From positions 1-8,279 of IMG/VR virus record IMGVR_UViG_2548876852_000004: a stretch of DNA of 8,279 nucleotides. One strand, given 5' to 3'. The notes below the pieces were generated by a model. It ran no database searches and had not been told where the DNA came from. It saw only the letters and a list, made by a program, of their open reading frames with translations. Position numbers and translations under genes: made by a program. Below, in pieces: positions 358 through 2,732 of this stretch. Numbering within the stretch: position 1 is the first letter of the stretch; each line of letters opens with the position of its first letter. Source of the stretch: a virus. Lineage: Duplodnaviria; Heunggongvirae; Uroviricota; Caudoviricetes.

Positions 358-386
358 AGAAAAAACAAAACCCGCCGAAGCGGGTT
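358..386 (-). terminator. rho-independent terminator downstream of hok
   Basis: On the minus strand: stem AACCCGC / GCGGGTT (7 bp, plus coords 369-375 and 380-386) with loop TTCG, followed directly by TTTTGTTTTTT (A-run 358-368 on plus). It lies about 70 nt past the hok stop codon. Confidence 0.7.
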
Positions 387-454
387 AAGTGCGGGTGCGT
401 TGAGGATGCCTGACACATCAGCGGTGGCGAGGGATTTCTCCCCCGCCTGGTCTC

Positions 455-610
455 TTACTCCTCAGGTTCGTAAGCTGTGAAGACAGCGACCTCCGTCTGG
501 CCGGTTCGGATTCGTACCTCGCAGAGGTCTTTCCTCGTTACCAGTGCCGTCACTATGACGGTTAAACAGATGACGATCAGGGCGATTAACATCGCCTTTT
601 GCTGCTTCAT
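455..610 (-). CDS. hokD: Hok/Gef-family type I toxin (51 aa, single transmembrane helix)
   Basis: Translation MKQQKAMLIALIVICLTVIVTALVTRKDLCEVRIRTGQTEVAVFTAYEPEE matches the Hok/Gef family and, as I recall it, HokD (RelF) in particular. ATG at 608-610 is preceded by AGGAG with 8-nt spacing; stop TAA at 455-457. The tracked ORF 455..649 begins at an upstream TTG with no SD. Family call is firm; the paralog name is from memory, and the K-12 relBE neighbours are absent here. Confidence 0.8.
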   Translation of the reverse strand: MKQQKAMLIALIVICLTVIVTALVTRKDLCEVRIRTGQTEVAVFTAYEPEE

Positions 611-624
611 AACCTGCTTCTCCT

Positions 625-1830
625 GTGTAAGTTCACAGAGATATTGCAATTGCCTCCGGATAAGTAAGGGGAGATTGCACTATGCAAATGCAGCATCTGA
701 TGGTTGGCTATCCTAAGTACTACCAAACGGCCGATTATGCGTTGAGGCTTTCAGTGATGGCTGATATAGCAACAATGAGAATGAAGGCTCTGCACTTCTG
801 GGATAAACACGGTATTTCTGCAGCTTCTGAAGCCTTTGGCGTGTCCTGCCGCACGCTTTACTGGTGGCGTCAGTTACTGAACAAGGAAGGACCTGAGGGG
901 CTAATCCCGCACAGTAAGGCACCTCTGGTGCGACGAAAAAAACACTGGCATCCCGATGTGCTGAAAGAGATTCGACGCCTCAGGACAGAGCTGCCGAACC
1001 TCGGTAAAGAGCAGATTTTTGTTCGCCTGAAGCCCTGGTGCGAACAGCGCTATCTGGCCTGTCCGAGTGTTTCCACCATCGGCAGAATGATCGCTGCCGC
1101 ACATGATAAAATGCGGATGATACCTGTGCGTCTGGGATCGCGGGGGAAGGCACTGCTTGTCAAAAAGCGGTCTGCCAAACCCCGCAGGCCAAAGCACTAC
1201 CGCCCGGTAAAGACAGGTGAGCTCATTGGGATGGACGCCATTGAGCTCAGAATGGGCGAACTGCGTCGCTATGTCATCACCATGATCGACGAATGCAGCA
1301 ATTACGCGCTGGCGCTGGCTGTGCCGTCACTCAACAGTGATATCGTCAATCACTTCTTCAGCCGCGCAGCCCGGTTGTTCCCGGTCGGTATCAGCCAGAT
1401 AATCACAGATAACGGAAAAGAGTTCCTGGGAAACTTCGACAAAACGCTGCAGGAAGCCGCTATCAAACACCTCTGGACCTATCCCTACACGCCAAAAATG
1501 AACGCTATCTGTGAACGTTTTAACCGGACGTTAAGAGAGCAGTTTATTGAATTTAATGAGATTTTACTCTTTGAAGATCTGGCGCTATTTAACCAGAAGC
1601 TGGCGGAATATCTGGTGCTGTATAACAGCAAAAGACCCCACAAGGCGCTCGCACTAATGACGCCCGTGGAATATATTTTAAAAGAGAATAAAAATTGCAA
1701 TATGTGGTGGACCCATACATCTCCTTGCCTTTCGGCGCGTAAGAGGCTAACCTACGTTTGTGAAGCATAGATTGGGCCTCAGATTAATGTTAAGCGTCTT
1801 GCAGGACGCGTAATGTTAACTGGGGCTTTT
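625..1830 (+). mobile_element. putative insertion sequence carrying the DDE transposase; boundaries not resolved
   Basis: Single transposase ORF wedged between hok and phage genes. Terminal inverted repeats could not be identified confidently by eye: only a shared TTCACA/TGTGAA motif near 633-638 and 1759-1764. The extent given is approximate. Confidence 0.3.
682..1770 (+). CDS. DDE transposase with N-terminal HTH and rve integrase core (IS481-family-like)
   Basis: 362-aa ORF. N-terminal HTH-like segment (ALHFWDKHGISAASEAFGVSCRTLYWWRQ). Catalytic triad candidates D (GMDAIE), D (ITDNGKEF) and E (NAICERFNRTLREQ), with about 35 residues between the second D and E, followed by KRPHKAL. SD AAGGGGAG sits 8 nt upstream of ATG 682. 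Confidence 0.8.
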   Translation: MQMQHLMVGYPKYYQTADYALRLSVMADIATMRMKALHFWDKHGISAASEAFGVSCRTLYWWRQLLNKEGPEGLIPHSKAPLVRRKKHWHPDVLKEIRRLRTELPNLGKEQIFVRLKPWCEQRYLACPSVSTIGRMIAAAHDKMRMIPVRLGSRGKALLVKKRSAKPRRPKHYRPVKTGELIGMDAIELRMGELRRYVITMIDECSNYALALAVPSLNSDIVNHFFSRAARLFPVGISQIITDNGKEFLGNFDKTLQEAAIKHLWTYPYTPKMNAICERFNRTLREQFIEFNEILLFEDLALFNQKLAEYLVLYNSKRPHKALALMTPVEYILKENKNCNMWWTHTSPCLSARKRLTYVCEA

Positions 1831-1954
1831 CTCTGTCTGCCTTACGGTGGCATGCCCGAGGCAGACAGCCTCAAGCACCCGCAGCAATTCTACTTAACTC
1901 TCGCTTTACAGCAAACCGTTTTGCCCGATATGGGAATTCCCATACGGAATGAAT

Positions 1955-2059
1955 TCAGTTCCCCAGGCGCTCCATCAAAAACACAACCAGGCAGTAAACA
2001 CCCACAACAGCAATAACAGCCAGAGCGCCTTCCATTACCAGTGAAATATCATCCGACAT
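1955..2059 (-). CDS. candidate small hydrophobic peptide (34 aa, one predicted TM helix)
   Basis: Not in the ORF track (below its length cutoff). ATG at 2057-2059 is preceded by a strong SD AAGGGAGGG (spacer about 3-4 nt). Translation MSDDISLVMEGALAVIAVVGVYCLVVFLMERLGN has acidic/charged ends and a hydrophobic core. Stop TGA at 1955-1957. An AT-rich possible promoter lies at 2060-2168. Confidence 0.3.
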   Translation of the reverse strand: MSDDISLVMEGALAVIAVVGVYCLVVFLMERLGN

Positions 2060-2168
2060 ATTCCCTCCCTTGGTGTGAATCCCGGCGAACGTTTTTACCC
2101 CCACCGACAAATAACATATACTAGAAAAGCAATAGCTATAGCAACGCCTGCAAATGCATCTGGCCGGC

Positions 2169-2732
2169 TCATTGGTTCTCCCCCTGTGTCGCTTCTACTG
2201 CGATCTGACTGGCGTATTCGTTAATGGTAACGATAAGTTCTTGCTCGGCCTCATCCAGACAACTACCGATACCTCGCCTGTCCACTTCAGAAGCATCGAA
2301 ATCTGCACGAAGCCTGGCGACCTTCAGGATTGCGGACAACACCTCATCAGGGATTGCCGGAGAGTTGGTTGACGTTTCCGAGATTATCCGAAAATTATTG
2401 GTTGACGAACCCTTATTTTCCCGAAAGTTTCCAGCCTGAAGCATGGCGGCGCGGTGACACCAGATAATCCAGCCAAGCGCCATATCCCATGCCATGTATT
2501 CTCTATCGCCATTTTTTGCTCTGCGGCGATCTACAGATTCCCCGAAACGCTTCTCCATAAATAATTCATAGGCTGCCCGTTCATCCGATACTGATGCCAG
2601 TGATGCCAGTGCAATTTTTAATGCGGTAAGCATGTTGTTTTGATCTTCATCGAGTCCGAACGGTATTTCATCCCGTGATGACTCAATTCCGGTAATCGTG
2701 TACTGTAGCCATTCTTTGGTTAATTCAGTCAT
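2169..2732 (-). CDS. hypothetical protein (187 aa), orphan gene with its own upstream region
   Basis: ATG at 2730-2732, stop at 2169-2171. A 126-bp AT-rich gap (2733-2858) separates it from the upstream gene. No recognisable domain motif by eye. Confidence 0.6.
   Translation of the reverse strand: MTELTKEWLQYTITGIESSRDEIPFGLDEDQNNMLTALKIALASLASVSDERAAYELFMEKRFGESVDRRRAKNGDREYMAWDMALGWIIWCHRAAMLQAGNFRENKGSSTNNFRIISETSTNSPAIPDEVLSAILKVARLRADFDASEVDRRGIGSCLDEAEQELIVTINEYASQIAVEATQGENQ

Follow-up and report, generated by a model that had tools for sequence, protein, structure and literature searches.

The 34-codon open reading frame on the minus strand at positions 1955-2059, here called ORF-B, is, judged from its sequence, a genuine protein-coding gene under purifying selection, and it very probably specifies a small membrane protein and not a type I toxin. 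That role at this locus belongs to hokD, which is disabled here by the insertion of an IS481-family element. The ORF-B family (ECs_5710 / XECs145 / WP_001278460) is confined to lambdoid prophages of Escherichia and Shigella and is uncharacterised. The gene itself is already known: it is present in RefSeq and UniProt, and its translation was reported in 2017. The finding is real but ordinary.

The window, that is, the whole 8,279-nt stretch of DNA analysed here, covers the rightward early arm (replication-to-Q) of a lambdoid prophage, which is read from the minus strand. Genes follow in the order Cro, YdaT-like, replication genes, DUF1627, Ea22-like, a 103-aa ORF, and a 187-aa orphan. Positions 1780 to 2780 match prophage DNA of E. 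coli O26:H11 11368 and of many O157:H7 and other STEC genomes with 100% identity. ORF-B starts with an ATG at 2059-2057, stops with a TGA at 1957-1955, and encodes MSDDISLVMEGALAVIAVVGVYCLVVFLMERLGN. Its assignment as a single-pass membrane microprotein rests on the sequence, a PGAP coding-sequence call, the ratio of nonsynonymous to synonymous polymorphism (pN/pS), a predicted transmembrane helix, and ribosome profiling of a paralogue. A Shine-Dalgarno sequence (AAGGGAGGG, 2063-2071, minus strand) precedes the frame, with the GGAGG core ending 4 nt 5' of the ATG. The peptide is acidic (net charge -3) and hydrophobic (GRAVY 1.40); its top 17-residue Kyte-Doolittle window, at residues 13-29, reaches 2.95. 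AlphaFold2 models it as a single continuous helix spanning residues 3-33 with a mean pLDDT of 91. An ATG start, a near-consensus Shine-Dalgarno, and one hydrophobic helix were the features given in the initial annotation, and the sequence, the hydropathy values, and the structural model bear them out.

The same annotation described the gene as unannotated, which is incorrect. PGAP places WP_001278460.1 (hypothetical protein) at exactly these coordinates, and the Sakai record carries the gene as ECs_5710/YP_009502606.1. RefSeq also holds several allelic forms (WP_001278450, WP_001278454, WP_001278459, WP_072134538, and WP_471723056). The exact ORF-B sequence is found on more than 1000 contigs, where its name is always “hypothetical” or “uncharacterized.” Of 5426 complete E. 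coli genomes, 732 carry a conserved ORF-B (median 3 copies each, maximum 6), and the gene is multi-copy in the prophages of O157, O26, O111, O121, and O145 strains. In one case (E. coli O55:H7 RM12579, L007 1623-1834), the whole of ORF-B is tandemly duplicated; the second copy has a TTG start and no Shine-Dalgarno, and PGAP annotates both. The distribution is narrow and covers only Escherichia and Shigella, with 5 matches among 185,579 species representatives. A tblastn search of phages returned only unannotated matches of about 50% identity in mEp460, Tritos, and Evi, which correspond to the second clade described below, and a protein-database search with a 51-aa in-frame extension of ORF-B returned only E. 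coli hypothetical proteins. Clusters at 90% identity that group ORF-B peptides with unrelated proteins of 789 and 121 aa (xanthine dehydrogenase and DUF551, respectively) were discounted, the DUF551 grouping being an artefact on inspection of the sequences. Literature look-ups by sequence or accession returned no papers, and the sole match came through the supplements of PMC5597208.

Copies of ORF-B gathered from complete E. coli genomes, GenBank phages, GTDB representatives, and IMG/VR fall into two clades. Clade A, to which the window belongs, has an ATG start and 34 aa. Clade B (the mEp460/Tritos/Evi type) has a GTG start and 29 aa, with the sequence MLVLKCALAI(T/A)AVMAIYCLA(I/V)VLM(D/E)RLSD. 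The two clades share about 50% amino-acid identity without indels. Common to both are the reading frame, a Shine-Dalgarno (AAGGAGG, AGGAGG, or GGGAGG) 4-5 nt from the start, a YCL...LM(D/E)RL core, and a position next to hok. Every clade A allele has either AAGGAGGG or AAGGGAGGG as its Shine-Dalgarno, and most clade B alleles have AGGAGG or GGGAGG located 5 nt ahead of the GTG. The ATG at 2059, giving the 34-aa form with its strong and conserved Shine-Dalgarno, is supported as the translation start; it is preferred over a longer frame because PGAP, Shine-Dalgarno conservation, and clade B agree. A 51-aa version with a TTG start (1955-2110) was rejected: L003 has a frameshift in the added segment and clade B lacks that segment, while the Shine-Dalgarno and ATG are conserved. 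A promoter scan found no consensus promoter upstream of ORF-B in either clade, and the supplements of a transcription-start-site paper on EDL933 (PMC10469882) contained no matching sequence strings.

Selection on the encoded peptide is evident within each clade. For ORF-B, the 9 clade A alleles give a pN/pS of 0.18 and the 11 clade B alleles one of 0.145, and codon position 3 holds 24 of the 34 variable sites (binomial P = 1e-5), these 34 sites being the whole basis of the statistics given the low diversity within clades. Between clades the ratio is 0.50, a value near saturation that discriminates poorly from some other frames. Of the six frames, ORF-B alone stays open in every one of the 9 clade A and 11 clade B alleles; each of the other five, shifted or on the opposite strand, is interrupted by a stop in some or all alleles. 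On the ORF-B strand, pN/pS in the two shifted frames is 0.74 to 1.8 (one is undefined, with zero synonymous change). One opposite-strand frame (frame 1) has lowish ratios (0.34 and 0.22) only through third positions that it shares with ORF-B, and it is stopped in every allele. Comparison of the frame and of its synonymous and nonsynonymous changes across homologous prophages, which the initial annotation had named as the way to overturn its proposal, favours a real gene. Its reading of the frame as a coding gene for a small single-pass membrane peptide stands on this selection pattern, on published translation, and on the predicted helix.

Translation of a close paralogue has been measured in E. 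coli O157:H7 Sakai. Hücker et al. 2017 (PLoS One 12:e0184119, PMC5597208) reported XECs145 (MCYLSVGVKTFAGIHTKGGN-MSDDISLAMEGALAVIAVVGVYCLVVFLMDRLGN) as translated, and this protein is 94% identical to that of the window, differing by V8A and E30D. After correction for a 144-nt offset between versions of the Sakai record, the coordinates of XECs145 correspond to ECs_5710, upstream of mokC/hok in the lambda-like prophage Sp6. In LB, XECs145 gave 79.1 RPKM of RNA and 346.1 RPKM of footprints, for a ribosome coverage value (RCV) of 4.35 and a coverage of 0.99; in BHI, the corresponding values were 121.3 RPKM, 150.1 RPKM, 1.14, and 0.84 (PMC5597208 S2 Table). All of these values belong to the paralogue rather than to the window allele, and the reads are multi-mapping, since Sakai has several near-identical copies. 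In exponentially growing cells, XECs145 ranks with the better-translated small ORFs, and it was predicted to be an inner membrane protein with 1 transmembrane segment (PMC5597208 S8 Table). The published call is an extended 54-aa frame that adds 57 nt upstream of the ATG, including the last 21 nt of the neighbouring ORF-A (PMC5597208).

Upstream of ORF-B is a second micro-ORF. The 187-aa phage gene (2169-2732, minus strand; phrog_14306, 1.2e-34), whose position is occupied by a DUF551 gene in other prophages, is followed by ORF-A (2095-2172, minus strand), a tiny hydrophobic ORF of 25 aa (MSRPDAFAGVAIAIAFLVYVICRWG). The ATG of ORF-A overlaps the TGA of the 187-aa gene (ATGA), and such an overlap with the upstream stop was seen in the contexts inspected. 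Across 29 DNA alleles the ORF-A frame is retained, with in-frame 6-nt indels and alternative stop codons. The pN/pS between ORF-A subtypes is 0.29, as compared to 0.76 and 1.95 in the shifted frames. ORF-A homologues of 25-27 aa (...VY.ICRWG) are conserved across diverged prophages and often lie directly before the hok promoter. The evidence for ORF-A was equivocal in the first sample and became convincing only after hok-anchored sampling; it appears to be a second genuine micro-gene. ORF-A has no PGAP annotation in the RefSeq loci inspected, and a few GenBank submissions name it “bacteriophage protein” or “hypothetical.”

The ATG of ORF-B lies 35 nt beyond the ORF-A stop. Alignment with the many hok loci that have ORF-A and lack the intervening DNA delimits a segment of about 175-185 nt (about 1917-2089/2100, minus strand), which contains the Shine-Dalgarno, ORF-B, and a palindrome, is located between the end of ORF-A and the hok -35, and is bordered by the direct repeat GGGTAAAAACG / GGGCAAAACG, with the GGGCAAAACG copy on the hok side in the window. 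Relative to the loci with ORF-A only, ORF-B and the palindrome are thus an apparent discrete cassette or insertion. The palindrome, TATGGGAATTCCCATA, is a perfect 16-bp sequence at 1929-1944, after the ORF-B stop and ahead of the hok -35. Among clade A copies, 83 of 84 have it, and in most alleles it extends to 22 bp. It is also found at PPompW hok loci without ORF-B; clade B lacks it. Possible roles are those of an operator, an RNA hairpin, or an insulator; an intrinsic terminator was rejected, as no T-run follows.

Downstream of ORF-B, the hok/sok locus begins. The initial annotation correctly positioned ORF-B between the 187-aa orphan and the insertion sequence but overlooked the hok promoter and 5' leader in the interval between ORF-B and that element. 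The hok/sok 5' leader (1714-1880, minus strand) includes the hok mRNA 5' end, the mok start (1768-1766), and the Sok target region; it matches Rfam RF01794 (sok) with 111.3 bits against a gathering score of 59 (E = 2.4e-25) and is 100% identical to the leader of an intact O26:H11 hokD locus. A putative hok promoter, TTTGCT - 17 nt - TAGAAT, can be read from the sequence at 1887-1915 (minus strand), and a homologous promoter (TTGGCG-17-TAGAAT) was detected in the clade B locus L009. The IS481-family element, 1095 bp long (625-1719, plus strand; rve, HTH, and LZ_Tnp_IS481 matches), is inserted at the hok Shine-Dalgarno and is flanked by a 6-bp target duplication, TCTCCT, at 619-624 and 1720-1725. 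The hokD coding sequence (455-610, minus strand; 51 aa, annotated as hokD, WP_000813254.1, in the matching locus) is intact, and the element separates it from the promoter, leader, mok, and Sok target. The same insertion is found in about 55 complete E. coli genomes. The transposase ORF of the element (682-1770, plus strand, 362 aa) has no stop within the element and runs 51 nt past its end at 1719 into the hok leader; its C-terminus is therefore encoded by flanking DNA. Just downstream of hokD, at 365-446 (minus strand), a GC-rich hairpin and T-run coincide with a weak isrK-like Rfam match (27 bits, below the gathering score of 50), which is probably the 3' end and terminator of the hok mRNA and not IsrK.

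The distance between ORF-B and the hok leader is fixed. In the window, the leader begins at 1880, 75 nt past the ORF-B stop. In clade A, it starts 74-76 nt after the ORF-B stop in 82 of 84 copies, and in clade B, 42 nt after it in 76 of 78, for a total of 158 of 162 copies across both clades. When loci were sampled from IMG/VR through the hok leader (119 loci, 108 with enough upstream sequence), ORF-B was found upstream of hok in 42 of the 108 and absent from 66. In 16 of the 108, the ORF upstream of hok is a homologue of ORF-A (MTWPEAFTTVGIAMAVALVVYSICRWG) that stops 41 nt before the leader; ORF-A or ORF-B therefore occupies the slot in 58 of 108 loci. Neither is directly upstream of hok in the other 50, which include 5 with a different hydrophobic-tailed ORF. 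In L194 and L222, a third, unrelated hydrophobic-tailed ORF (...LILIFGYINALFLGVFMAVMCIEYWR, then a stop) ends 89 nt before the hok leader. ORF-B without a downstream hok occurs in L005. Three hok loci (L096 1501-1566, L182, and L231) retain no more of ORF-B than its last 5-6 codons, of clade A or clade B type, joined to upstream DNA that is unrelated, which indicates that recombination junctions recur within the 3' end of ORF-B. In clade B phages of the mEp460 and Tritos types (e.g., L009 706-2055 and L010 663-1997, both minus strand), the divergent upstream gene encodes either PD-T7-1 (PADLOC 4e-157) or a FRG-domain protein, and these neighbours therefore mark the slot as an accessory or defence (moron) hotspot.

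The reading given most weight, held tentatively and at slightly less than even probability, is that ORF-B is a partner-binding accessory factor of the “moron” type in a prophage defence/addiction hotspot, rather than a membrane-killing toxin. ORF-B is carried as a compact cassette that follows the coupled, tiny ORF-A, with 42-76 nt separating it from the start of the hok/sok leader. The peptide would insert into the inner membrane with its N-terminus out and its C-terminus in, an orientation suggested by the acidic N-terminal tail and, in clade A, by a single Arg on the C-terminal side. A face of small residues (A12, A14, A17, G20, and C23), small in clade B too, would suit helix packing, and ORF-B may act through helix-helix association with another membrane protein. 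That it should be mildly toxic or pore-forming is improbable, whether as an autonomous toxin or as a pore former.

Several alternatives are considerably less probable. One gives the peptide a role in the adjacent system: ORF-B, possibly together with ORF-A, might be a Hok/Sok partner, either modulating the insertion or toxicity of Hok or completing an abortive-infection or exclusion cassette in the nin-region defence hotspot. This proposal, to which we assign a low probability, is made because ORF-A and the ORF-B of either clade terminate 41-76 nt from the 5' end of the hok leader and because 58 of 108 loci have one or the other in the slot.

A second alternative, similarly unlikely, makes the peptide itself unimportant and treats ORF-B as a cis-acting upstream ORF of hok that works through promoter occlusion, 5'-extended hok mRNAs, or insulation from Rho. 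The constant spacing in two diverged clades, with the hok promoter only 40-75 nt downstream, the conserved palindrome between ORF-B and that promoter, and the truncated remnants that retain only the ORF-B tail and the hok promoter are all consistent with an effect in cis. However, purifying selection on the amino-acid sequence (pN/pS 0.15-0.18) would be needless for a pure effect of translation, the majority of hok-anchored loci (66 of 108) do without ORF-B, and ORF-B occurs without hok in L005.

It is also doubtful that ORF-B is translated yet functionless, with its conservation due to recent ancestry and hitch-hiking with the hok module. The narrow distribution of the gene, its low allelic diversity within clades, and the lack of any assigned family or domain are compatible with such a history. 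Against these stand the third-position bias and low pN/pS, which arise independently in both clades, and the maintenance of frame, Shine-Dalgarno, and core motif, without indels, across about 50% amino-acid divergence.

The initial annotation suggested a type I toxin or a small membrane regulator, and the former is now disfavoured. On the toxin reading, ORF-B would depolarise the inner membrane or make it permeable, as Hok, TisB, and Ldr do, with an antisense RNA keeping it repressed. It is small and hydrophobic, as such toxins are (34 aa, Kyte-Doolittle 2.95, a predicted single helix), is prophage-borne, and directly adjoins a bona fide type I locus. However, the peptide matched 0 Pfam-A families at E <= 1, nothing in PHROGs, and nothing in NCBIfam beyond a chance ATP-synthase c match (13.8 bits against a cut-off of 116), and the PADLOC defence models gave 0 families for ORF-B and ORF-A alike. 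These profile searches agree with the initial annotation in keeping ORF-B outside Hok, Ldr, Ibs, TisB, ShoB, and DinQ. No antisense promoter or terminator was detected on the plus strand across 1900-2090, and no Rfam family matched over ORF-B at E <= 1; the only antisense system nearby is hok/sok at 1714-1880. The minus-strand mRNA from 1881 to 2180 folds at -85.6 kcal/mol, close to the shuffled mean of -87.4 (z = +0.40), and the Shine-Dalgarno is strong and exposed in all alleles rather than sequestered. The acidity of the peptide, the translation of the paralogue at an RCV of 4.35 in healthy, exponentially growing cultures, and the tolerance of multiple copies per genome (median 3, maximum 6) likewise weigh, indirectly, against toxicity. 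Together these features argue against a potent RNA-repressed toxin, and the chance that ORF-B is a type I toxin is small. The plus-strand ORF at 1813-2016, offered initially as a possible marker of an antisense transcript, is spurious, and almost certainly neither it nor such a transcript is a real feature: although 67 codons are open in the window, the frame runs antisense across ORF-B as well as the promoter and leader of hok, it has no promoter-like site to drive it, the opposite frames that are open in some alleles have pN/pS above 1.7 in clade A and stops in other alleles, and the remaining opposite frame is stopped in every allele.

On present evidence, ORF-B is one more prophage microprotein, and the gain lies mainly in a record to correct: the gene is annotated, it is translated, and the toxin of the locus is hokD. 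With its translation signals, purifying selection, multiple copies, and fixed link to hok/sok, ORF-B is a well-supported candidate for small-protein work in STEC. If a role in Hok control, phage exclusion, or prophage induction proves true, a protein component would be added to a classic RNA-regulated toxin system. Two leads are more novel: the constant linkage of two micro-ORFs to hok/sok, and ORF-A, which PGAP leaves without annotation in the loci inspected.

Among known systems, the nearest relative of ORF-B is XECs145/ECs_5710 of Sakai Sp6, which belongs to the same gene family and has the same position upstream of mok/hok; it was called as 54 aa by Hücker et al. (PMC5597208), as compared to 34 aa for ORF-B. 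The Hok/Gef toxins resemble ORF-B in being small, single-TM, and prophage-encoded at the same locus. In contrast to Hok/Gef, however, ORF-B has no PF01848 match, no mok-like overlapping frame, no Sok-like antisense RNA, and no folded leader; its juxtamembrane residues are acidic rather than basic, and it lacks a periplasmic Cys-containing tail. HK97 gp15 and T4 Imm are phage membrane proteins that give superinfection exclusion. Neither has homology to ORF-B, nor does ORF-B have a PADLOC match, and an exclusion role would be suggested by analogy only. The likeness to prophage “moron” exclusion and defence proteins lies in expression in the lysogen (from ribosome profiling of the paralogue), a variable accessory slot beside hok/sok, and the presence of PD-T7-1 in mEp460-like phages. 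The small membrane regulators encoded on the E. coli chromosome (e.g., AcrZ, MgrB, MgtS, SgrT, CydX, and KdpF) have 30-50 residues and one transmembrane helix. They have no sequence similarity to ORF-B, which differs in being phage-borne and multi-copy, yet they may serve as the working model by analogy: ORF-B is like them in size, in its one predicted transmembrane helix, in efficient translation, and in plausibly having a larger membrane partner.
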